Below are positions 1-58,850 of a stretch of DNA of 64,000 bases, piece after piece. The first letter of the stretch is position 1; each line of letters starts with the position of its first letter. Under the pieces are notes generated by a model that saw only the letters and a program-made list of their open reading frames with translations, searched no databases and had not been told where the DNA came from. Source of the DNA: Escherichia coli (GTDB lineage: Bacteria > Pseudomonadota > Gammaproteobacteria > Enterobacterales > Enterobacteriaceae); NCBI RefSeq assembly GCF_003018255.1, contig NZ_CP027440.1; one strand, 5' to 3'. A program made the position numbers and the translations under genes.

Positions 1-814
1 AGGCAATCCATAACGCTCCTACACCGAACAACTGCACTACAATTTTTGGAAGCGATGCTGCCGCCGCCATTTTTTCACCATAGGCGTCGAAGTGTAAGAC
101 GACTACCGTACATCCCCAGTAGACTAATCCTGCCAGCAGCAGACCAATCATCAAAGCACGAGGAAAATCACGCTCTGGATTTTTAAATTCCGAGGCGAGA
201 TGGGCAAATGCCTCCAGACCGACAAAACACCAGAACATCACTGATAACGCAGCAAATAACCCGGTAAGTTCGATATTACCAGGTGCCGGGAAGGGGATAT
301 TCGCAGGTTTGATATCGCCCGCCCACCAGATAGCGACAATCAGCGCGACGATAAGTCCGGCAATAACGGTTTGTAGATTTGCACTGGAACTGGCACCGCG
401 AGTACCGATATACCACACCAACGCCAGCGTACCGAGTTCTGCCAACAACAGTTGCCAGCTATGCCAGCCAAACATTGCCTGGCCGAACCCGGCGGCAATT
501 TGTAGTGCGGCAGGCAAACCCACGGGAATGACCGATAAAAACAGCCAGCCGGTGACTCGCTCAAGCCGCGAACCAAACGCCATACCGACGAAGTGCGCGA
601 CGCCGCCTGCGCTGGGATAGTGGCGACCCAGAATCGCAAACACAATCGCAATCGGGAACACTAAGATAATCAAAACGGGCCACGCCCACAGGCTGTTATT
701 GCCCGCTACCAGTGCAGCTAACGCAGGAACGGCAAACACGCCAGTGCCTAATAATGACGTCGATAGCAGGCCAATGCCCTGGGCCAGCCCCAGTTCTTGT
801 TTGAGTCCACTCAT
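1..814 (-). CDS. yjeH: Amino-acid exporter YjeH, N-terminal ~270 codons; gene runs off the window start
   Basis: Minus-strand frame open from ATG (revcomp at 812..814) to window edge; translation MSGLKQELGLAQGIGLLS... recognised as YjeH; not in ORF track because no stop lies in the window. Confidence 0.85.
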   Translation of the reverse strand, partial: MSGLKQELGLAQGIGLLSTSLLGTGVFAVPALAALVAGNNSLWAWPVLIILVFPIAIVFAILGRHYPSAGGVAHFVGMAFGSRLERVTGWLFLSVIPVGLPAALQIAAGFGQAMFGWHSWQLLLAELGTLALVWYIGTRGASSSANLQTVIAGLIVALIVAIWWAGDIKPANIPFPAPGNIELTGLFAALSVMFWCFVGLEAFAHLASEFKNPERDFPRALMIGLLLAGLVYWGCTVVVLHFDAYGEKMAAAASLPKIVVQLFGVGALWIA

Positions 815-974
815 GGGTTGATGTCCGATTGCGCCCAAATTTTGGGCAACTGCGTAGATTTTCGATGGTAGCACAATCAGATTCGCTTATGACGGCGATG
901 AAGAAATTGCGATGAAATGTGAGGTGAATCAGGGTTTTCACCCGATTTTGTGCTGATCAGAATTTTTTTTCTTT

Positions 975-1012
975 TTCCCCCTTGAAGGGGCGAAGCCTCA
1001 TCCCCATTTCTC
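975..1012 (+). promoter_or_regulatory. sigma32 (heat-shock) promoter of groESL
   Basis: cccccTTGAA (977..986) and CCCCATTT (1002..1009) match the sigma32 consensus, about 80 nt upstream of groS. Confidence 0.6.
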
Positions 1013-1038
1013 TGGTCACCAGCCGGGAAACCACGTAA

Positions 1039-1383
<345 letters not shown>

Positions 1384-1414
1384 TCCGCGCACGACACTGA
1401 ACATACGAATTTAA

Positions 1415-3073
<1,659 letters not shown>

Positions 3074-3099
3074 TTGCCCTGCACCTCGCAGAAATAAAC

Positions 3100-3136
3100 A
3101 AACCCCCGGGCAGAAATGTCTGGGGGTTTTTCTTTT
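3100..3136 (+). terminator. Rho-independent terminator of groESL
   Basis: GC hairpin ccccc(3103..3107)/ggggg(3122..3126) followed by T-tract. Confidence 0.8.
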
Positions 3137-3210
3137 GGTCATCTTTCTAGTATAAGATTCAGACACGGACGACGCGAGTGGCGTCCAGCTCATTGATTAT
3201 GGGGAATAAC

Positions 3211-3564
3211 ATGCACGTAAAATACTTAGCAGGGATTGTCGGTGCCGCGCTACTGATGGCGGGTTGTAGCTCCAGCAACGAATTGAGTGCTGCCGGTCAG
3301 AGTGTACGCATTGTGGACGAGCAGCCAGGCGCAGAGTGCCAGCTGATTGGTACTGCGACAGGTAAGCAAAGCAACTGGCTTTCCGGGCAACACGGAGAAG
3401 AAGGCGGTTCTATGCGCGGCGCAGCAAACGATCTGCGCAACCAAGCGGCTGCAATGGGCGGTAACGTGATTTATGGCATCAGCAGCCCGTCGCAGGGAAT
3501 GTTGTCCAGTTTTGTCCCGACGGATAGCCAGATTATCGGCCAGGTATATAAGTGCCCGAACTGA
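3211..3564 (+). CDS. yjeI: Lipoprotein YjeI (DUF4156)
   Basis: ORF track frame; start moved to internal ATG 3211 (MHVKYLAGIVGAALLMAGCSS, lipobox) giving 117 aa. Confidence 0.85.
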   Translation: MHVKYLAGIVGAALLMAGCSSSNELSAAGQSVRIVDEQPGAECQLIGTATGKQSNWLSGQHGEEGGSMRGAANDLRNQAAAMGGNVIYGISSPSQGMLSSFVPTDSQIIGQVYKCPN

Positions 3565-3613
3565 TGTGATCCAGAGGCTGGATACTTCCAGCCTCGTAGT
3601 AAAACAGATGGGA

Positions 3614-4483
3614 TTATTTCGCCTGTGGTGCAGTTTTGCTGGTGGATTGAACACGTAAGTGATGCAGCGCGCGTAAGCATTGATCCTGGGTTAGCGGTTG
3701 GGCGTTATTTGCCGCTACGGTGCGAACATAGACCTGACATGGCACACCCGCGAGTTTTTTCAGTCGGGGGCTGAAATCAAGCATTCGGCGAGTGATCGCC
3801 TCCACTTCTTTACCCGGCGTTGCTTCACGCGTTTTCACCACTGCGCCGCTAAATTGTTCTTTGCCACTTTCATCTTTAAAGCGGTAAAGCACCGCCAGAT
3901 AATGGTTGAACAAGTTATGTTTCCATTCCGGTTGGGAATAGGTGTCATATTCCAGATTGCCATTGTCCTGGCAGTCAACGTCGTATAACGGCAGGAAATC
4001 TAACAGTGAAGTAATACGTAATGCCAGTTCACGCATTTCCGCATTATTAATTGCATGAATGATTGCTCGCGCCAGCATTTCAATCTGTAATTCATTGATG
4101 ACTAACTCACATTTGCTACCGTCATGTAGTGTTAATACGAAGGTAAGATTTTCGCCCTGATTATCGGTAAGTTCCAGCGTGTTAACCCGACGATTAATAT
4201 CGGCATTTTTAAGCTCATCAACCAGAATTTCTGGGATATTTTCTGCCATTTTCTTAATGACTTTATCGCGAGCTTGCTCATACTGAAGGCGTGCAGCAGC
4301 ATCCAGTTTATGCTTTTGATGCAGACGGCTTTCCAGCGCAATCAGCAGGTCGCGCAGTTCCATGACAGACAGAAAGAACAACGATTCTTTATTGCGAGGC
4401 TCTTTAATTTTCAGCGCCAGTGCAATGAAATTATTGCTCTTGCGAATAACACCGGTATTAACACCCTTGATGCTTATGGCCAT
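3614..4483 (-). CDS. yjeJ: Uncharacterised protein YjeJ
   Basis: ORF track 3614..4513; start taken at MAISIKGVNTG (ATG revcomp 4481..4483), 289 aa; AT-rich gene. Confidence 0.8.
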   Translation of the reverse strand: MAISIKGVNTGVIRKSNNFIALALKIKEPRNKESLFFLSVMELRDLLIALESRLHQKHKLDAAARLQYEQARDKVIKKMAENIPEILVDELKNADINRRVNTLELTDNQGENLTFVLTLHDGSKCELVINELQIEMLARAIIHAINNAEMRELALRITSLLDFLPLYDVDCQDNGNLEYDTYSQPEWKHNLFNHYLAVLYRFKDESGKEQFSGAVVKTREATPGKEVEAITRRMLDFSPRLKKLAGVPCQVYVRTVAANNAQPLTQDQCLRALHHLRVQSTSKTAPQAK

Positions 4484-4717
4484 GTAGGTTCTCCCTAACC
4501 ATTTCTCAATCAAATAATTAATTTTAATTTATAAGCCAGATAAATGGGCTTGGTAGTAATAGTTGTTAAAATAACATAAATAGCCGTGCTCACTCTATAT
4601 AAACAGAAAAGAAAGGTTAATTATTGGTGTTGGTTATATAAAAAGTAATAACAGCAATGTATATGAATAATTAAAGGTTATGCAACGTGCAAAGATTAAA
4701 CTTCCCTGTTTAATCAG

Positions 4718-5746
4718 TTACTGCTGGCGTAGCTGGAGATCCAGCGGCGTTTTGCTGGGTTCGCCGCCAATTTCTCGCGCCAGTTTAGGCACCAGATATC
4801 CCGACACCAGTGTCAGCAACTCACGCATAATCTGCCGTGCTTCGTCATCACTCACCATAAAATGCGCCGCGCCCTGTACTTTATCGAGCACATGCAGGTA
4901 ATACGGCATCACGCCCGCATCGAACAACGCATTACTCAGGTTTGCCAGCGTTTGCGCGTTATCGTTCACACCACGTAACAGAACGCTCTGGTTGAGCAAA
5001 GTAACGCCTACCCGGCGCAACTTAGCCATCGCCTGACGGAATGTTTCATCTACCTCATTGGCATGGTTAATGTGATTCACCAGCAAGATTTGCAGCGTAG
5101 AATGAGAAAAGCGTTCAACCAGCGCATCTGTGATGCGTGCCGGGATCACAATCGGCAGACGGCTGTGAATCCGCAGACGTTTGATATGCGGGATGGCTTC
5201 CAGTTGTGTGAGCAACCAGTCCAGCTCGTGATCTTTCGCCATCAGCGGATCGCCGCCGGAGAAAATCATCTCGTCCAGTTCCGGATGCGCAGCAACATAC
5301 TCAAGTGCAGTCTGCCAGTTACGCTTGTTGCCCTGATTTTCGGCATAGGGGAAGTGGCGACGGAAGCAATAGCGGCAATTTACCGCGCAGCCGCCTTTGA
5401 CCAGCAAAAGCGCCCGGTTGTGGTATTTATGCAACAAACCTGGCACTACGCTGTGCTGTTCTTCCAGCGGGTCGGTGGAGAATCCGGGCGCGACAACAAA
5501 CTCATCTTGCGAGGTAAGTACCTGACGCAAAAGCGGATCGTTCGGATTGCCTTTCTCCATGCGATCGATAAATGAGCGGGGCACACGCAGGGCAAACAGC
5601 TTTTTGGCGCTGCGCCCGGCCAACAGTTTTTCGTCCGCGTCTATATTCAAAAGACGCAGAAGTTCATCAGGATCGGTCACAACATCGGCAAGTTGCGTTA
5701 ACCAATCTTCTCTGGATGGGGTATTTAGGGTTACAATATGCGCCAT
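4718..5746 (-). CDS. epmB: EF-P beta-lysylation enzyme, lysine 2,3-aminomutase-like radical SAM protein EpmB
   Basis: ORF track 342 aa; CAVNCRYC radical-SAM motif; recognised as YjeK/EpmB. Confidence 0.93.
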   Translation of the reverse strand: MAHIVTLNTPSREDWLTQLADVVTDPDELLRLLNIDADEKLLAGRSAKKLFALRVPRSFIDRMEKGNPNDPLLRQVLTSQDEFVVAPGFSTDPLEEQHSVVPGLLHKYHNRALLLVKGGCAVNCRYCFRRHFPYAENQGNKRNWQTALEYVAAHPELDEMIFSGGDPLMAKDHELDWLLTQLEAIPHIKRLRIHSRLPIVIPARITDALVERFSHSTLQILLVNHINHANEVDETFRQAMAKLRRVGVTLLNQSVLLRGVNDNAQTLANLSNALFDAGVMPYYLHVLDKVQGAAHFMVSDDEARQIMRELLTLVSGYLVPKLAREIGGEPSKTPLDLQLRQQ

Positions 5747-5787
5747 TTTGTGGCTTAGCTACCAATTAACAAATTTCAGAGGGCCTT

Positions 5788-6354
5788 ATGGCAACGTACT
5801 ATAGCAACGATTTTCGTGCTGGTCTTAAAATCATGTTAGACGGCGAACCTTACGCGGTTGAAGCGAGTGAATTCGTAAAACCGGGTAAAGGCCAGGCATT
5901 TGCTCGCGTTAAACTGCGTCGTCTGCTGACCGGTACTCGCGTAGAAAAAACCTTCAAATCTACTGATTCCGCTGAAGGTGCTGATGTTGTCGATATGAAC
6001 CTGACTTACCTGTACAACGACGGTGAGTTCTGGCACTTCATGAACAACGAAACTTTCGAGCAGCTGTCTGCTGATGCAAAAGCAATTGGCGACAACGCCA
6101 AATGGTTGCTGGATCAGGCAGAGTGTATCGTAACTCTGTGGAATGGTCAGCCGATCTCCGTTACTCCGCCGAACTTCGTTGAGCTGGAAATCGTTGATAC
6201 CGATCCGGGCCTGAAAGGTGATACCGCAGGTACTGGCGGCAAACCAGCTACCCTGTCTACTGGCGCTGTGGTTAAAGTTCCGCTGTTCGTACAGATCGGC
6301 GAAGTCATCAAAGTGGATACCCGCTCTGGTGAATACGTCTCTCGCGTGAAGTAA
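5788..6354 (+). CDS. efp: Elongation factor P
   Basis: ORF track 188 aa; [25 protein letters not shown]... recognised as EF-P. Confidence 0.97.
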
Positions 6355-6405
6355 TGCGGTTGTGGTGCGGCCTGCAGGCTGCACCATCACTTATTCAGGT
6401 CAGAG

Positions 6406-6531
6406 ATGATGAAACGCCTTATCGTTCTTGTTTTGCTTGCCAGTGCGCTGCTCACGGGCTGTAACACCGCTCGCGGTTTTGGTGAAGACATTAAACATCT
6501 CGGCAACTCCATCTCCCGCGCTGCCAGCTAA
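6406..6531 (+). CDS. ecnA: Entericidin A small lipoprotein
   Basis: 41-codon ORF MMKRLIVLVLLASALLTGCNTARGFGEDIKHLGNSISRAAS read directly from sequence; below the ORF-track size cutoff. Confidence 0.85.
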   Translation: MMKRLIVLVLLASALLTGCNTARGFGEDIKHLGNSISRAAS

Positions 6532-6641
6532 TTTTTCTTCTCCTCCGAAAAATCATCAGATTTCCATCATTTTTGGCGATGTTGTCTATTATTAATTTGC
6601 TATAGGCAAACATAAATAACATTACCTAAAAGGAAGACGTT

Positions 6642-6788
6642 ATGGTGAAGAAGACAATTGCAGCGATCTTTTCTGTTCTGGTGCTTTCAACAGTATTAAC
6701 TGCCTGCAACACCACGCGTGGCGTTGGTGAAGACATTTCTGATGGCGGTAACGCGATTTCTGGCGCAGCAACGAAAGCGCAGCAGTAA
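6642..6788 (+). CDS. ecnB: Entericidin B small lipoprotein
   Basis: 48-codon [51 protein letters not shown] with RBS aggaag; below ORF-track cutoff. Confidence 0.85.
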
Positions 6789-6796
6789 GCAATAAC

Positions 6797-6832
6797 GGTA
6801 CGACAGCTGTGTCGTGCCGTTTGTTTTTTTTG
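6797..6832 (+). terminator. Rho-independent terminator after ecnB
   Basis: 9-bp stem (6797..6805/6810..6818) followed by long T-tract. Confidence 0.75.
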
Positions 6833-6900
6833 CGATAGTCACAAAGGTAATAGTTGAAATTCCCCTGCCACCTGGCAAAATATCCGTTCAACCATCAGCT

Positions 6901-6945
6901 TTGCAGGACGACCTGCAAACGCCTCTTTTCACCGGGGACGGCCCC
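6901..6945 (+). promoter_or_regulatory. Guanidine-II riboswitch (mini-ykkC motif) in the gdx leader
   Basis: Two short hairpins with ACGR loops: gcaggACGAcctgc (6903..6916) and ggggACGGcccc (6934..6945), 18 nt before the gdx start. Confidence 0.8.
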
Positions 6946-6963
6946 AATTCTCCGGAGCCTGAT

Positions 6964-7281
6964 ATGTCCTGGATTATCTTAGTTATTGCTGGTCTGCTGG
7001 AAGTGGTATGGGCCGTTGGCCTGAAATATACCCACGGCTTTAGTCGTTTGACGCCAAGTGTTATTACTGTGACGGCGATGATTGTCAGTATGGCGCTACT
7101 TGCCTGGGCGATGAAATCGTTACCAGTAGGGACGGCTTATGCCGTGTGGACGGGTATTGGCGCAGTCGGCGCGGCCATCACCGGCATTGTGCTGCTCGGC
7201 GAGTCCGCTAACCCGATGCGCCTGGCGAGTCTGGCGTTAATCGTATTGGGGATTATTGGTCTGAAACTCAGCACTCACTAA
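6964..7281 (+). CDS. gdx: SMR-family guanidinium exporter Gdx (SugE)
   Basis: ORF track frame; start at internal ATG 6964 ([22 protein letters not shown]), 105 aa. Confidence 0.93.
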
Positions 7282-7815
7282 CTAACTACCGGGCTGCTGT
7301 ACCCAAATAAACTTACTGACATCAAACCCTTCCCGGGTCGCGACTGCCAGCATCTCCTGTTTCACTTCGTCAGAAATGGTTGGCGTGCGGGAGAGTATCC
7401 ACAGGTAGTCGCGGTCCGGACCGCAAACCAGCGCATGGCGGTATTCCCGATCGAGTGCAATAACGTTATAACCGCCATAGAAAGGACCAAAGAATGACAC
7501 TTTCAGCGCAGCGCGAGTTGGTGCGCCGGTAAAGTACGCTTTCCCTTCACTCTGCTGCCACATTTCTCTGTCAGGGTTATAGCCTTTATTAATGACATTC
7601 AGGCCGCCGTCATCACGCAGGCTGTATGTTGCGGTGACTTTTTCCAGTCCACGTTCAAAACGGTGATCAAAACGGGCAATCTCATACCAGGTACCGAGAT
7701 AGCGTTTAGCATCGAAATTATTCACTACGGTCACGCCACGGGGCGGCGTAGGAGAACTGCAGGCAACGACCAGAAATGCAGCTGTCGCTGCGGCAACGAG
7801 AGGGAGCAGGCGCAT
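7282..7815 (-). CDS. blc: Outer-membrane lipocalin Blc
   Basis: ORF track 177 aa; MRLLPLVAAATAAFLVVACSS lipoprotein signal; recognised as Blc. Confidence 0.93.
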   Translation of the reverse strand: MRLLPLVAAATAAFLVVACSSPTPPRGVTVVNNFDAKRYLGTWYEIARFDHRFERGLEKVTATYSLRDDGGLNVINKGYNPDREMWQQSEGKAYFTGAPTRAALKVSFFGPFYGGYNVIALDREYRHALVCGPDRDYLWILSRTPTISDEVKQEMLAVATREGFDVSKFIWVQQPGS

Positions 7816-7903
7816 AAATGTTTCCTTACTGGTTTTTTTCTAAGTGTAGATGACAGCAAGGAAAAGCGGAGAAAAGGTCCAAAAATTCGGACCCGATGAA
7901 ATT

Positions 7904-9459
<1,556 letters not shown>

Positions 9460-9469
9460 CTCAGGCTCC

Positions 9470-10602
<1,133 letters not shown>

Positions 10603-10610
<8 letters not shown>

Positions 10611-12411
10611 TCGCCTTCTCCTTCTTATTGGCTGCTTCCGCCTTATCGGCTGCATCCGCTTCGCCACCGTAAACACGTTTAGCTGGCGGCAGCGTAGTAA
10701 TCTTCACGTCGCTGTACTCCAGGCGAGTTGTGCCATCAGCATCGCGGAAGGCGAGGGTGTGTTTGAGGAAGTTGACGTCGTCACGCTCGGTGCAACCTTC
10801 GTCCAGACGCTGGTGCGCGCCGCGGGACTCTTTACGTGCCATTGCGGAGTGCGCCATACATTCAGCAACGTTCAGACCGTGGCCCAGCTCAATGGTGTAG
10901 AGCAGGTCGGTGTTGAACACGCTGGAAGTGTCGGTGATGCGCACGCGCTTGAAGCGTTCCTGCAGCTCTGCCAGCTTGTCGATGGTTTTCTGCATCAGTT
11001 CCGGCGTACGGTAGATACCGCAGCCTTCTTCCATGGCCATGCCCATTTCGTCGCGGATCTTAGCCCAGTTTTCGCCGCCATCCTGGTTAACCAGATCTTT
11101 CAGGCGCTGTTCAACGCCAGCAACCTGAGCATTGATTGCTGCATCGTTGCCATTACCGGCAGTAGATGCGCGTTCCATAGCTTGCTCACCGGCCAGACGA
11201 CCGAAGACCACCAGTTCCGCCAGCGAGTTGGAGCCCAGACGGTTCGCACCGTGCAGACCAACAGAGGAACATTCACCCACGGCGAACAGACCTTTAATGC
11301 GGGTTTCACAGTTCTGATCGGTTTCGATACCGCCCATGGTGTAGTGTGCGGTCGGACGTACCGGAATCGGTTCTTTAACCGGATCGACGCCAACGTACGC
11401 TTTCGCCAGTTCGCAGATGAACGGCAGACGTTCATGCAGTTTTTTCTCGCCGAGGTGACGCAGGTCGAGATAAACCACATCGCCACGTGGCGTGGAGATG
11501 GTGTTGCCTTTACGCCATTCGTGCCAGAAGGCCTGAGAAACTTTGTCGCGTGGACCCAGTTCCATATATTTGTTTTTCGGCTCGCCCAGCGGAGTTTCCG
11601 GGCCCATGCCGTAATCTTGCAGATAACGGTAGCCATTTTTGTTGACCAGAATACCACCTTCACCGCGGCAGCCTTCTGTCATCAGGATACCGGAACCGGG
11701 CAGACCGGTTGGGTGATACTGAACGAATTCCATGTCACGCAGCGGAACGCCGTGGCTTAGCGCCATACCCATACCGTCACCGGTAACGATGCCGCCGTTG
11801 GTGTTGTAACGATAAACGCGACCCGCACCGCCGGTAGCCATAACGACCGCGTTAGCACGGATCTGCACCAGCGTGCCTTCCATCATGTTCATTGCTACCA
11901 GGCCGCGAACATGACCATCATCAACCAGAATATCCAGCACGAAATGTTCGTCAAAACGCTGGATCTGCGGGAATTGCAGAGAGGTCTGGAACAGCGTGTG
12001 CAGCATATGGAAGCCGGTCTTATCGGCGGCGAACCAGGTGCGCTCGATTTTCATGCCGCCGAAGCGACGTACGTTGACGCTACCATCCGGGCGACGGCTC
12101 CATGGGCACCCCCACAGTTCCAGTTGGGTCATTTCGGTTGGGCAGTGGTGGACGAAATAATCCACGACATCCTGCTCACACAACCAGTCGCCACCCGCTA
12201 CTGTATCGTGAAAGTGATATTCGAAGCTGTCATGATCCTGCGCGACAGCGGCGGAGCCCCCTTCTGCAGCAACGGTATGGCTACGCATCGGGTATACTTT
12301 TGAGATTAGTGCGATTTTTGCATTTGGATTTGCCTGCGCGGCAGCAATTGCAGCACGTAATCCCGCGCCACCGGCGCCTACAATGGCAAGATCGGCTTGA
12401 AAGGTTTGCAC
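10603..12411 (-). CDS. frdA: Fumarate reductase flavoprotein subunit
   Basis: ORF track 602 aa; [21 protein letters not shown]... recognised as FrdA; overlaps frdB start by 8 nt. Confidence 0.97.
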
Positions 12412-40145: not shown

Positions 40146-40160
40146 TTCCTCTGAATTATG

Positions 40161-40192
40161 AAAAGCCATCCAGATTTGGATGGTTTTTTTTT
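40161..40192 (+). terminator. Rho-independent terminator after rlmB
   Basis: Hairpin ccatcca-gatt-tggatgg followed by 9-nt T-tract. Confidence 0.8.
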
Positions 40193-40271
40193 GTCTATAG
40201 CTGGTAAGATAATTACGTACTGCAAATATTCATTTTATTAATATTTAAACTTAATTTATATGGAATAATAT

Positions 40272-40673
40272 ATGACATGGAATCCGTTGGCGCTGGCGAC
40301 GGCGCTGCAAACTGTACCTGAACAAAATATTGATGTAACAAATAGCGAGAACGCATTAATTATTAAAATGAATGATTATGGCGATTTGCAAATCAATATT
40401 CTATTTACTTCCCGCCAAATGATTATCGAAACCTTTATTTGTCCGGTAAGTAGTATCAGCAATCCAGATGAATTTAATACCTTCTTATTAAGAAATCAGA
40501 AGATGATGCCGTTGTCATCGGTAGGGATCTCCAGCGTGCAACATGAAGAGTATTACATTGTTTTCGGTGCGTTATCGCTTAAATCTTCTCTTGAAGATAT
40601 CCTGCTTGAGATAACCTCGCTGGTAGATAACGCATTGGATCTGGCTGAAATTACAGAAGAATATTCACACTAA
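40272..40673 (+). CDS. yjfI: Uncharacterised protein YjfI (DUF2170)
   Basis: ORF track 133 aa. Confidence 0.85.
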   Translation: MTWNPLALATALQTVPEQNIDVTNSENALIIKMNDYGDLQINILFTSRQMIIETFICPVSSISNPDEFNTFLLRNQKMMPLSSVGISSVQHEEYYIVFGALSLKSSLEDILLEITSLVDNALDLAEITEEYSH

Positions 40674-57087: not shown

Positions 57088-57579
57088 ATGGGTAAAAAAA
57101 CAGCACCGTTACTCCCTTATACGAATCAGATGCTTAGTGAATTTGGTGAGCGGCTGAAACTTGCTCGTTTACGACGCAGGCTTACCGCAAAGCAAGTTGC
57201 TGAACGTGCTGGGATGTCGCCAATAACATTGCGCTCTCTGGAGTCAGGAAGTGCAGGGGTCACGATAGGGGCATATTTGTCTGTGATGCAGGTTTTGGGC
57301 CTGGAAACGGATTTAAATAAGCTTGCAGCTGAAGACGACTTAGGGCGTCAGCTCCAGGATTCCCGTTTGATTAAAAAAAGAGGGCTTTCTCGTGCATCAA
57401 GTAAGAATGAAGAAGGTTCTCAGACAGCCTCATTGCAGATGAGGCACGAGAAAGAAGGTCATCTCACCACGGATTTAACAGCACTGGCAGAAGGCTCGAC
57501 GCCATCTATTACAGGAGAAACATCAACCTCTCTTGCAGCACTATTAAAACCGATAAAAAAACCGTTAAAAGGAAATTAA
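57088..57579 (+). CDS. XRE-family helix-turn-helix protein with extended Ser/Thr-rich C-terminal tail; putative HipB-like antitoxin/repressor
   Basis: ORF track 163 aa; N-terminal region ([32 protein letters not shown]) has the XRE/Cro-type HTH pattern; stop lies 2 nt before the kinase start. Confidence 0.7.
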
Positions 57580-57581
57580 TT

Positions 57582-58850
57582 ATGGCATTAATCGGAGTGT
57601 ATGCGGATTGGGAAGGCCTGGATGGTCCGGAGCGGATTGGTTATTTACACAGTCGCCGCACTCGGACGCGTGAGATATTTGAGTTTGAGTACGATAAAAA
57701 GGCGCTTGCAGATCCTTCACTTAATTTCATTCAGTTAGATCCTGAAATAATGTTGTATGAGGGAGCACACTACCCAATTCCTCCAAAGGATAAATTTGGT
57801 GCATTTAGTGATTCCTGCCCGGATCGTTGGGGGCGTATGCTAATGAAGCGTCGTTTTGAGAGGGATATTCGAGACGGGTTATGTGATAAAGACTCCCACC
57901 TTTATGAGTCTGATTATCTACTAGGTGTTCATGATCTTTATCGGGTTGGGGCCCTTCGATACAAACGTGAAGACGCTGGAGAGTTTCTTGATAATCGCAT
58001 TGATGTTGCAGCCCCACCATTTACCGAAATAGCGAGTCTGGAAAGGGCTAGCCGGGCAATTGAAGAAGATCCTGATAATAAAGAGCTAATGGGGCAAAAA
58101 TGGTTAAGAATGCTAATCGCTCCGGGGGGATCATTAGGGGGGGCACGTCCGAAAGCCAGTGTTGTTGATGAAGCTGGGCATCTCTACATCGCTAAATTTC
58201 CCAGTGTAAAAGATGAGTATGATGTTGGTGGATGGGAAATGGCCGTTAATGCACTTGCTGTTGGCTGTGGACTGAATGTTGCACCTGCTCAGGCGCATAA
58301 ATTTGCCAGCAATTACCATTGTTTTATGGTTCGTCGTTTTGACCGCACTAATGCGGGAAGGCGTCTGCATTTTGCTTCGGCTATGACACTAACCAGGCAT
58401 CAGGATGGTGAAGATGCCTCTACAGGTGTGAGTTATCTGGAATTAGCAGATGTTCTTATCAGGCATGGCGCGCAGACTAATACTGATCTTAAGGAACTCT
58501 GGTCCAGGATTGTTTTTAATATTCTTGTTTCTAATACCGATGATCATTTACGCAATCATGGATTTATCTTGATACCAGGAAAAGGTTGGCGGCTTTCTGA
58601 GGCATATGATTTGAATCCTGTGGTCAGGTCTGATGGTTTAAAACTCAATATTACGGAAAATGACAATGCACTTGATTTGGAATTAGCTAGAGAAGTTGCA
58701 GAGTATTTTCGACTTAGTTTGACGGAAGCTGATGACATTATTGCTAATTTTAGAGGGATTGTCAGTCAGTGGCGAATCATTGCCGAGCGTCTGAGATTAC
58801 CTGGTCGTGAGCAAGAGTTAATGGCAGAGGCATTCAGAGCGTCAATTTAG
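57582..58850 (+). CDS. HipA-family serine/threonine kinase (putative toxin)
   Basis: ORF track 422 aa; HipA-like motifs GGARPK (res ~186-191), NTDDHLRNHG (res ~318-327), AYD (res ~341-343) and N-terminal SDSCPDRWGR resembling the HipA N-subdomain; RBS aaaagga. Confidence 0.75.
   Translation: MALIGVYADWEGLDGPERIGYLHSRRTRTREIFEFEYDKKALADPSLNFIQLDPEIMLYEGAHYPIPPKDKFGAFSDSCPDRWGRMLMKRRFERDIRDGLCDKDSHLYESDYLLGVHDLYRVGALRYKREDAGEFLDNRIDVAAPPFTEIASLERASRAIEEDPDNKELMGQKWLRMLIAPGGSLGGARPKASVVDEAGHLYIAKFPSVKDEYDVGGWEMAVNALAVGCGLNVAPAQAHKFASNYHCFMVRRFDRTNAGRRLHFASAMTLTRHQDGEDASTGVSYLELADVLIRHGAQTNTDLKELWSRIVFNILVSNTDDHLRNHGFILIPGKGWRLSEAYDLNPVVRSDGLKLNITENDNALDLELAREVAEYFRLSLTEADDIIANFRGIVSQWRIIAERLRLPGREQELMAEAFRASI

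Follow-up and report, generated by a model that had tools for sequence, protein, structure and literature searches.

The AT-rich yjeJ segment of Escherichia coli holds a core gene whose relatives close a fimbria-linked microcin cassette

Between epmB and groESL, the Escherichia coli DNA contains an AT-rich segment with yjeJ, a K-12 gene of no known function. The locus raises two questions: whether this composition reflects an old horizontal acquisition inside a housekeeping block, as a preliminary description had proposed, and what the protein may do. We analysed the segment (3614-4717) within a window of 64,000 nucleotides (contig NZ_CP027440.1 of assembly GCF_003018255.1), together with its relatives in other genomes. 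The low GC of yjeJ is unremarkable alone; the cassette context of its relatives, which is the first functional lead for this gene, makes it a testable case. The account we arrived at, in which yjeJ is a vertically inherited orphan of a microcin cassette and has an immunity-type role that we infer, is plausible as a whole but carries somewhat less than even weight with us.

Parts and base composition of the segment

The AT-rich segment consists of yjeJ, a core gene, with its own promoter and leader. The features, by position in the window and strand, are:

3178-3564, plus strand: yjeI, a DUF4156 lipoprotein gene (Pfam PF13698), the right-hand flank of the slot
3574-3595, no strand assigned: G+C-rich hairpin of 9 bp without a U-tract, between the convergent yjeI and yjeJ (RNA fold)
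3614-4483, minus strand: yjeJ coding sequence for a 289-aa protein of the YjeJ family (PF15922), in its orphan clade (ORF listing)
4484-4717, minus strand: epmB-yjeJ spacer, 28.6% GC, bearing the yjeJ promoter and leader
4491-4496, minus strand: Shine-Dalgarno AGGGAG, 7 nt 5' of the ATG at 4483 (read in the sequence)
4592-4620, minus strand: sigma-70 promoter TTAACC-17-TAGAGT, with -35 at 4620-4615 and -10 at 4597-4592 (read in the sequence)
4718-5746, minus strand: epmB, the conserved left-hand flank of the slot (ORF listing and syntenic loci)

The gene had been placed between groESL and epmB; the epmB flank was confirmed, but on the other side yjeI separates groEL from yjeJ. The reported length of 289 aa is correct when counted from the ATG at 4483, where the protein starts. 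Position 4513 is merely an upstream TTG of the mechanical ORF, and the non-coding DNA, previously given as 4514-4717, therefore spans 4484-4717. The Shine-Dalgarno motif ggttaGGGAGaacc is kept in the stand-alone (orphan) copies of Escherichia, Citrobacter, Kluyvera and Phytobacter.

yjeJ is expressed from a constitutive sigma-70 promoter. The TTAACC-17-TAGAGT motif was not called by a simple consensus promoter scan; the identical motif is given for the epmB-yjeJ spacer in a genomic SELEX table, which lists it as a constitutive RpoD promoter and whose spacer row lacks the HNS flag that adjacent rows bear (PMC3946193), and the YjeJ protein was detected by proteomics in LB-grown cells (PMC9508795). 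We considered whether yjeJ, with its AT-rich spacer, is an H-NS-silenced xenogeneic gene, and rejected this in view of the constitutive RpoD promoter and the detected protein, both from the literature. At the other end of the gene, the hairpin (-18.8 kcal/mol, z = -3.6; 0 of 200 shuffles were equally stable) was not called by a terminator scan and is probably the shared terminator of yjeI and yjeJ. Rfam gave no match within or near the spacer. A sub-threshold Rfam match to ctRNA was seen at 3098-3138, probably the groEL terminator.

The segment had been described by eye as AT-richer than neighbouring core genes, and computation agreed. GC was 45.4% for the yjeJ coding sequence, 28.6% for the spacer and 41.8% for 3614-4717 overall, compared with 51.6% for the window and 53-55% for the flanking genes (groEL, 53.0%; yjeI, 55.0%; epmB, 53.2%). 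The overall value lies at the 0.19th percentile among all 1104-bp windows (mean 51.6, sd 3.8). The GC of yjeJ is the 4th lowest among 60 long ORFs of the window, the spacer is the second most AT-rich among 24 intergenic regions (median 44.8%), and the AT-richest 234-bp window in all 64 kb begins at 4489. Within the gene the GC is uneven, with ~51% in the 3' third (3614-3900) and 40-44% in the 5' two thirds. Codon adaptation, proposed as a check on foreign origin, gave values indistinguishable from those of ordinary window genes: the codon distance of yjeJ to the pooled window genes was not atypical (B=0.329, rank 34 of 58), and its codon adaptation index (CAI), calculated with weights after the Sharp and Li table, was 0.337 against a median of 0.327 and 0.312 for epmB. 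Composition alone cannot demonstrate acquisition of yjeJ.

Descent of yjeJ and the cassette of its relatives

Presence of the gene was not patchy, as an islet would have suggested. Of 5426 complete E. coli genomes, 5425 have yjeJ, and a genome scan for syntenic copies, seeded with a 10-sequence alignment, revealed the order efp-epmB-yjeJ-yjeI-groEL in 43 species loci that represent about 20 genera. Salmonella enterica carries an intact yjeJ in the same slot (285 aa, 58% identical), with 44.6% GC against 55.0% for epmB. The GC of yjeJ was below that of epmB in 42 of the 43 syntenic loci; the deficit is therefore a property of the gene lineage and not of a fresh import. No tRNA was found in 1-12000, a repeat search around yjeJ returned only chance-level pairs and no flanking repeat, and the ORF listing contained no integrase, IS or transposase ORF near the gene. 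The orphan yjeJ clade was monophyletic and roughly in step with the species phylogeny in a midpoint-rooted neighbour-joining (NJ) tree. yjeJ is maintained by purifying selection, with dN/dS of 0.03-0.10 within Escherichia, and the 3' 170 nt of the spacer are almost invariant throughout this genus including E. albertii, against which the dS of yjeJ is 0.79. The gene has thus stayed in the slot between epmB and yjeI-groESL by vertical descent since before many Enterobacteriaceae genera split. Because it is core and syntenic, has native codons and is under such constraint, any acquisition predates the radiation of Escherichia, Salmonella, Citrobacter, Kluyvera and Pluralibacter.

The other family members are the last gene of a cassette with the order chaperone-usher fimbriae, glycine-rich double-glycine microcin precursor, membrane-fusion protein (MFP), C39-peptidase ABC exporter (PCAT) and YjeJ. 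This cassette was found in 9 of 9 non-orphan chromosomal YjeJ clusters (50% identity) examined (P0143, P0156, P0165, P0145, P0134, P0153, P0138, P0141 and P0146), which come from Klebsiella, Entomohabitans, Scandinavium, Kosakonia and Budvicia. Usher and adhesin genes lie upstream in all nine, and one or two glycine-rich precursors of the class II microcin type are present, with the leader MKELTVFEMxxISGG|... The cassette yjeJ starts 8-22 nt past the PCAT stop, with a Shine-Dalgarno sequence within that spacer. The cassette genes have 37-47% GC against 55-56% for their flanks.

In Klebsiella, Entomohabitans and Scandinavium the cassette occupies the same slot as E. coli yjeJ; in most cases it adjoins yjeI-groEL, and yjeI adjoins yjeJ or the cassette-borne yjeJ in all slot-type loci. 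In Kosakonia radicincitans it sits at another chromosomal site, so the cassette travels as a unit. K. pneumoniae seems as a rule to carry it, as it was present in 6 of 6 contexts listed for one YjeI sequence (indexed in 53,336 blocks). Scandinavium carries, in tandem, one cassette copy and one orphan-type copy, Kluyvera an orphan yjeJ plus the cassette, and plasmids of Serratia and E. coli bear orphan copies without any exporter. In the window, the neighbours of yjeJ are epmB and yjeI, and no precursor, MFP or PCAT lies beside it. A low-stringency search in the spacers of 19 orphan loci found no relics of PCAT, MFP or microcin, and inspection of PCAT C-termini against the upstream ORF extension in E. 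coli showed no exporter relic. The direction of change, from cassette to orphan or the reverse, rests on the midpoint-rooted NJ tree.

Since the other family members examined form the last gene of the cassette, and the cassette occupies the same slot in three genera, the E. coli gene is an orphan of the microcin cassette, either a paralogue or a relic, and it shares the low GC of the cassette. Of the proposed horizontal acquisition, ancestry in an accessory island remains plausible, because the rest of the family resides in an AT-rich fimbria/microcin cassette in the same slot of other genera; an islet of E. coli does not agree with a core, syntenic gene. The constant pairing of a fimbrial operon with a microcin exporter in Enterobacteriaceae and Budviciaceae points to a functional link between adhesion and peptide secretion, and we found no prior description of this pairing. 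No paper with the cassette peptide sequences was found in full texts or supplements, and the microcin-cassette context was absent from full-text papers mentioning yjeJ. Searches with the identifiers b4145, JW4105 and P39279 returned only unrelated papers, and delta-yjeJ alleles served as linked transduction markers only, without phenotypes (PMC10679819).

The YjeJ protein and its possible role

YjeJ matches Pfam PF15922 (YjeJ-like) over its full length (579 bits, E 2e-174, residues 1-283 to profile positions 1-283 of 283; gathering score 27 bits). This was its sole Pfam match at E up to 1, with no PUR or Whirly family; NCBIfam, PADLOC and PHROGs gave no meaningful match, and PDB sequence and profile searches none. 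The earlier remark that the protein has no recognisable catalytic motif therefore stands against Pfam, NCBIfam, PADLOC and PDB sequences. Family members are 274-294 aa long. YjeJ has no hydrophobic span (maximum 19-residue Kyte-Doolittle value 1.25; GRAVY -0.33), and its AlphaFold model is globular alpha/beta (pLDDT 93, pTM 0.88), with three repeated beta-sheet-plus-helix modules predicted. Seven polar residues (N9, K25, Q133, D162, Y167, Y179 and K217) and W187 are near-invariant in the family, a pattern that suggests a conserved binding or catalytic site, as judged from the alignment.

We consider it possible, though doubtful, that YjeJ is a soluble cytoplasmic immunity-type factor against glycine-rich microcins. 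It would act at the inner membrane face, or on the incoming or pre-export peptide, and E. coli, Salmonella and Citrobacter would retain the orphan as a constant safeguard against producing bacteria, among them Klebsiella and Kluyvera. Self-protection is the sole proposed role that is still sensible in a cell without peptide and exporter. A conserved small hydrophobic or membrane ORF, the classical immunity gene, was not found in five cassettes, which leaves YjeJ as the only spare conserved gene. The small-ORF search in these cassettes returned only alternate-frame artefacts inside the glycine-rich precursor gene. YjeJ is also the fastest-diverging component, with a mean pairwise identity across cassettes of 30% (microcin, 46%; MFP, 66%; PCAT, 76%), which supports immunity, as fastest divergence is described as a pattern of immunity proteins (PMC9746304). 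The orphan copies on plasmids without an exporter also speak for such a role. Verified class II microcin immunity proteins, however, are inner-membrane proteins of 51-216 aa, and YjeJ proteins, with 276-289 aa, are larger and, having no hydrophobic span, are predicted to be globular. The near-invariant residues, and a best structural match to a nucleic-acid-binding fold, also count against immunity.

The divergence of YjeJ across genera correlated with that of PCAT (rho 0.75), not with that of the microcin (rho -0.04). In K. pneumoniae, identity between microcin alleles drops as low as 32-35%, but that of YjeJ remains 80-91%, in step with PCAT (88-97%) and MFP. These patterns speak against immunity tied to particular microcin alleles, and for an association with the export machinery or with a partner that is itself conserved, and our confidence in specific immunity is lowered because YjeJ does not co-vary with the microcin allele. 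One alternative is thus an accessory of export or assembly, either a cytoplasmic holdase/chaperone whose client is the hydrophobic, glycine-rich pre-peptide, or a partner of PCAT or the fimbriae, with the E. coli orphan co-opted for another client. It would fit the co-divergence with PCAT and MFP, the probable translational coupling of yjeJ to PCAT across the 8-22 nt spacer, a soluble protein with repeated modules as modelled, and the family-wide conserved residues, which imply a conserved partner. It is nonetheless unlikely: it is hard to see what such an accessory would do in E. coli, Salmonella, Citrobacter or plasmids that lack peptide and exporter, the orphan is nonetheless under strong purifying selection, and known class II microcin systems require no such factor.

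The best structural match of the YjeJ model is a nucleic-acid-binding fold, at Foldseek E-values of 0.04 or more, and YjeJ might accordingly be a PUR/Whirly-like single-stranded nucleic-acid-binding regulator of the fimbria/microcin locus that stands alone in E. coli and has other targets there. We regard this as improbable. Foldseek searches of PDB and BFVD gave no match at E 1e-3, the sequence resembles neither PUR nor another family, profile-profile comparison detected no homology among the three modules (probability below 4%), and a regulator of a conserved locus would rarely differ as much from cassette to cassette as YjeJ does (30% identity).

Less probable again is that yjeJ is an ordinary weakly expressed, fast-evolving gene whose low GC comes from amino-acid composition and weak selection under AT-biased mutation, the cassette of its relatives being uninformative on its present role. 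GC2 is 0.33 and GC3 only moderately low (0.455 against 0.52-0.60 in neighbour genes), dS is about twice that of the neighbours, the CAI is that of low-expression genes, and the GC gap to epmB is almost gone in Kluyvera and Pluralibacter, all of which suit such a gene; the cassette linkage at the same slot in 9 of 9 clusters and the conserved, exceptionally AT-rich leader are left unexplained. A horizontal acquisition specific to E. coli or close kin, with the donor composition retained, is very improbable and already contradicted: low GC in the gene and above all in the spacer, and family members on plasmids and in a movable cassette, speak for it, but yjeJ belongs to the E. coli core genome and keeps its synteny in about 20 genera and Salmonella, the orphan-clade tree matches species relationships, codon usage and CAI are typical without marks of mobility, and the GC deficit against epmB recurs in 42 of 43 loci.

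The immunity-type reading can be widened. YjeJ may be an unrecognised fifth component of a widespread class II microcin system with fimbriae and glycine-rich peptides, a soluble cytoplasmic ~32 kDa protein of PUR-like repeat fold for self-protection or peptide handling, whose core orphan would protect E. coli, Salmonella and Citrobacter against peptides of Klebsiella, Kluyvera and Kosakonia; we hold this to be rather unlikely. If it is true, screens for new microcins with E. coli as host are blind to the glycine-rich peptide family. Microcin pipelines seek immunity genes solely among small, usually membrane, proteins beside the precursor: cinful keeps candidates of 30-250 aa, and a 2025 survey set an upper limit of 216 aa and required transmembrane helices. 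Pipelines of this kind would overlook a conserved gene for a soluble protein of ~280 aa that follows the exporter.

Comparison with known systems

The window protein is the namesake member of PF15922 ('YjeJ family protein' in RefSeq), a family without functional annotation. With Pur-alpha/Whirly-like beta-beta-beta-beta-alpha repeat proteins (PDB 3k44, 5fgp, 8chv; MRP1/2 2gia), YjeJ shares no sequence similarity, and the Foldseek E-values are at least 0.04.

Class II microcin clusters, as in the five-component model exemplified by microcin V (cvaC, cvi, cvaA, cvaB; PMC9746304), resemble the setting of the yjeJ relatives, which lie beside a double-glycine precursor, an HlyD-type MFP and a C39-peptidase ABC exporter. 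The yjeJ cassettes differ: they lack a small membrane immunity gene, their exporter is followed by a conserved gene for a soluble protein of ~280 aa, and upstream there is always a chaperone-usher fimbrial operon; the window has a stand-alone yjeJ only.

Cytosolic immunity proteins of the LciA/PedB type, which belong to Gram-positive double-glycine bacteriocins, are four-helix bundles of ~100 aa that lock the receptor-bacteriocin complex from the cytoplasmic side. They are a precedent for soluble cytoplasmic protection against a membrane-targeting, PCAT-exported peptide, but differ from YjeJ in fold and size.

Orphan immunity genes are a concept from bacteriocin, colicin and contact-dependent toxin systems; the term occurs for E. 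coli bacteriocins in PMC12546727. yjeJ differs from them in that, rather than varying between strains, it is core and keeps its synteny across genera, its immunity role is putative, and YjeJ does not follow the toxin allele in K. pneumoniae. It is like them in that a cassette-associated gene is kept, conserved and expressed in genomes and plasmids without the toxin and the exporter.

Base composition and conservation of the yjeJ locus

The yjeJ locus in the window is ~97.6% identical to that of K-12-derived strains and contains the features listed here.

Features of the yjeJ locus
1090-1383, plus strand: groES
1427-3073, plus strand: groEL
3178-3564, plus strand: yjeI, encoding a DUF4156 lipoprotein
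3574-3595: stable hairpin between the convergent yjeI and yjeJ
3614-4483, minus strand: yjeJ, 289 aa
4484-4717: epmB/yjeJ spacer, 234 bp
4718-5746, minus strand: epmB
5788-6354, plus strand: efp

The 289-aa YjeJ starts at the ATG at 4483, preceded by an AGGGAG Shine-Dalgarno sequence; the TTG at 4513 was rejected as a start, as it merely bounds the mechanical ORF. GC content is 45.4% for yjeJ, 28.6% for the spacer and 41.8% for 3614-4717 overall, against 51.6% for the window and 53–55% for the genes flanking yjeJ. Just 0.19% of 1104-bp windows match the AT-richness of 3614-4717, yjeJ has the fourth lowest GC among 60 long ORFs, and the spacer, second in AT-richness among 24 intergenic regions, holds the window's AT-richest 234 bp. 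Windowed GC thus bears out the preliminary description of 3614-4717 as AT-richer than its neighbors. The codon usage of yjeJ is ordinary, however: its distance to the pooled window genes ranks 34th of 58, and its CAI (weights from the Sharp-Li table) is 0.337, where the median is 0.327 and epmB has 0.312.

Elsewhere in the window, at 40146-40673, the most AT-rich gene (133 aa, DUF2170, 38.3% GC) lies behind the most AT-rich spacer (24.6% GC). At 57088-58850, plus strand, an XRE-type HTH gene (163 aa) with an AT-rich spacer upstream is followed by a HipA-like kinase gene (422 aa); GC is 44.6–45.9%, GC3 0.34–0.37 and CAI ~0.19, and yjeJ looks far less foreign in codon usage than this toxin-antitoxin-like pair.

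Of 5426 complete E. coli genomes, 5425 carry the yjeJ segment. A synteny scan with one genome per species returned 48 YjeJ loci, 43 of which keep the order efp-epmB-yjeJ-yjeI-groEL-groES (in genera including Escherichia, Citrobacter, Pseudocitrobacter, Kluyvera, Superficieibacter, Trabulsiella, Yokenella, Intestinirhabdus, Phytobacter, Kosakonia sp., Pluralibacter and Atlantibacter). The GC of yjeJ is below that of epmB in 42 of these 43 (mean gap, 7.3 points), and therefore the deficit is a property of the yjeJ gene lineage. Salmonella enterica carries an intact 285-aa YjeJ in the same slot, with 58% identity to the E. coli protein (89% for EpmB) and 44.6% GC (55.0% for epmB); yjeJ is 99–100% conserved within Salmonella. 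Eight Salmonella assemblies have it intact; it appears disrupted only in those of two type strains, subsp. diarizonae, with 97 codons before an in-frame stop (locus L027, 8001-8849), and subsp. arizonae, with 85 codons before a frameshift (locus L043, 8001-8833). Two short contigs labeled 'Bacillus coahuilensis' (L001, NZ_ABFU01000112.1) and 'Bacteroidales' MAG (L015, DAAV01000145.1) carry a 98% identical E. coli yjeJ with yjeI, almost certainly by contamination or mis-binning.

Across the syntenic genera, identity falls to 42% for YjeJ but stays at 83–98% for EpmB, 94–100% for EF-P and mostly 96–100% for GroEL. Within Escherichia, dN/dS of yjeJ is 0.03–0.10 and its dS is about twice that of its neighbors; therefore the gene, though evolving fast, is clearly functional. 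No tRNA, integrase, IS or meaningful repeat was found near yjeJ. Given its presence in nearly all E. coli, the 43 syntenic loci, the Salmonella copy and the ordinary codon usage, the reading of yjeJ as an islet is mostly refuted. As for an old horizontal acquisition, kinship with an accessory island is likely in view of the cassette relatives below, but any acquisition is ancient, older than many genera, and composition cannot demonstrate it.

The spacer contains TTAACC-17-TAGAGT (4620-4592, minus strand), exactly the motif that genomic SELEX assigned as a constitutive RpoD promoter for yjeJ; the HNS flag is absent from the yjeJ row and present on neighboring rows (PMC3946193). Across Escherichia, E. 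albertii included, this promoter and the ~100-nt leader hardly vary. YjeJ protein was measured by proteomics (PMC9508795), one paper lists yjeJ among known Nac-regulated genes decreasing in prolonged nitrogen starvation, and the gene itself contains an RpoH-holoenzyme SELEX peak. In E. whittamii, Escherichia sp. E1V33, MOD1-EC7003 and strain E69 (loci L002, L003, L004 and L009 against window 4700-4717), a ~150-bp insertion directly after the epmB stop carries REP/BIME-type palindromes (gcctgatgcgct...aggcctac) and creates a duplicate of cagcagtaactgattaaacagggaagtt; it is absent from the window, K-12-like strains and E. albertii. The yjeJ/epmB intergenic region was also the start boundary of the ampC amplicon in six independent amoxicillin-selected lines in a 2025 experimental evolution study (PMC12625342), and the extreme AT-richness of 4484-4717 may be relevant to this recurrence.

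YjeJ relatives and the fimbria-microcin cassette

The YjeJ family is tiny, with 341 proteins among 5.8 billion and 99 matches at E up to 0.001 among 1.84 billion 50%-identity cluster representatives; 23 full-length relatives were aligned (274–294 aa, 21–74% identity to the query). When the genomic contexts of divergent clusters were looked up, all nine non-orphan chromosomal clusters examined (K. pneumoniae, K. grimontii, K. quasipneumoniae, Entomohabitans, Scandinavium, Kosakonia radicincitans, Budvicia and two metagenomic lineages) showed one arrangement on a single strand: PapD chaperone, PapC usher, adhesin, one or two ORFs of 101–122 aa, HlyD-type membrane-fusion protein (MFP), C39-peptidase ABC exporter (PCAT) and YjeJ. 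The short ORFs are textbook double-glycine precursors, e.g., MKELTVFEMDTISGG|YSWDF...; their core is hydrophobic and glycine-rich, their DG(T/S)F.PW tail is conserved, and their similarity to Bacteriocin_IIc and MccV is sub-threshold only. YjeJ starts 8–22 nt past the exporter stop, with a Shine-Dalgarno sequence within the gap. Cassette GC is 37–40% for the MFP, 41–47% for PCAT and 38–47% for YjeJ, against 55–56% for the flanks.

In Klebsiella and Entomohabitans the cassette abuts yjeI-groEL, the slot that holds the lone yjeJ in E. coli, and it was present in six of six K. pneumoniae contexts listed for one YjeI sequence (indexed in 53,336 blocks). The yjeJ gene is expressed and conserved, an orphan of a family that is elsewhere associated with a fimbria-linked class II microcin export cassette in this slot. 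In two Kluyvera species epmB-yjeJ is followed by the cassette, and in Scandinavium the order is exporter, YjeJa, FimW-like GerE gene, YjeJb, yjeI. The Kosakonia radicincitans cassette lies at another chromosomal place, so the cassette moves as a block. A neighbor-joining tree groups the orphan slot copies in a single clade whose branching resembles the species tree, with the cassette copies on deep, long branches outside that clade and one Serratia plasmid copy branching separately; as the tree is midpoint-rooted, we infer rather than observe the direction of evolution between orphan and cassette.

The fimbrial operon always immediately precedes the precursor-MFP-PCAT-YjeJ genes and shares their strand (loci L049 1-8864; L053, L055, L057, L058, L059, L061, L069, L047; L062-L067), even at other chromosomal sites (Kosakonia radicincitans, Budvicia), with ushers 42–51% identical across lineages. 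This invariable pairing suggests a coupling between adhesion and the secretion of the peptide. At L053 3362-3598 and 3775-4023, the K. grimontii cassette has a second, unrelated 78-aa double-glycine peptide (MKRLTNEEMGQIEGG|...) and a partial duplicate of the main precursor, broken by an assembly gap.

The epmB/yjeJ/yjeI slot receives other insertions too (L010 6060-7778; L041 8970-10685; also L038 and L048): in C. youngae a gene for a 572-aa DUF4132 protein separates epmB from yjeJ, and in Phytobacter and Kosakonia sp. S29 yjeJ is separated from yjeI by a 571-aa ORF, apparently a methyl-accepting chemotaxis protein, judging by eye from its sequence. Full-length YjeJ genes also occur on Serratia plasmids of 18–57 kb, one of which, inspected in full, had neither exporter nor precursor. 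On pLAU-OXA4 (L052, 6144-7492) and about ten similar ~30-kb E. coli plasmids, a 163-aa protein matches the N-terminal half of YjeJ only (PF15922, sub-threshold, E 7e-4); its gene lies 28 bp past a parF-like ATPase gene and parG and is followed by a RelE/ParE toxin-antitoxin pair.

Possible roles of YjeJ

We tentatively favor the possibility that YjeJ may be a self-protection (immunity-type) factor for the class II microcin system, because a canonical system needs an immunity gene (PMC9746304), because the five cassettes compared have no small membrane ORF in common, and because YjeJ is their most divergent component (mean identity between cassettes: YjeJ 30%, peptide 46%, MFP 66%, PCAT 76%). 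It is also the only proposed role that fits strong purifying selection in genomes and plasmids without peptide and exporter. Against it, YjeJ is large and predicted to be soluble, without a membrane span, and conserved polar residues together with W187/K217 suggest that a binding partner or an active site is conserved. Moreover, YjeJ tracks the exporter rather than the peptide: within K. pneumoniae it retains 80–91% identity while peptide alleles fall to 32–35%, and between genera its divergence correlates with that of PCAT (rho 0.75) and not of the peptide (rho -0.04). Such tracking is what an export or chaperone accessory would show, an unlikely role that fits poorly with exporter-free copies under selection.

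It is similarly improbable that YjeJ is a PUR-like nucleic-acid-binding regulator. The AlphaFold model (24-sequence alignment; pLDDT 93, pTM 0.88) predicts three modules in which a helix comes after a beta-meander, and the highest-probability Foldseek matches were PURA. However, Foldseek against PDB and BFVD returned nothing at E 1e-3 and no mutual sequence similarity was found among the modules; therefore the predicted fold is a lead towards PUR/Whirly-like proteins, not membership. That yjeJ is merely fast-evolving, with the context of its relatives irrelevant, agrees with its high dS but sets aside the uniform cassette arrangement, and we consider it more doubtful still. A recent islet, for which AT-richness speaks, is highly implausible given the shared synteny.

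Relation to known microcin systems

As yjeJ is an annotated gene, the feature is not new in itself; RefSeq and Pfam give a family name only, without function. Delta-yjeJ strains (PMC10679819) were rejected as phenotype evidence, being linked markers only. Microcins are not the subject of any of the 35 full-text papers naming yjeJ, and no paper with the cassette peptide sequences was found, so that, as far as the searched literature allows, neither the YjeJ-microcin link nor the fimbria-microcin pairing appears to have been described. Cole et al. restricted immunity candidates to 30–250 aa, and a 2025 survey sought adjacent, small, membrane-spanning ones. The putative microcins of Cole et al. 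match the cassette in distribution: nearly 100% of the assemblies of K. pneumoniae, K. quasipneumoniae and Pluralibacter have them, as do most of those of Kosakonia radicincitans and K. oryzae. The cassette context leads to a new and testable hypothesis on what the uncharacterized yjeJ does, and it may mark a new variant among class II microcin systems.
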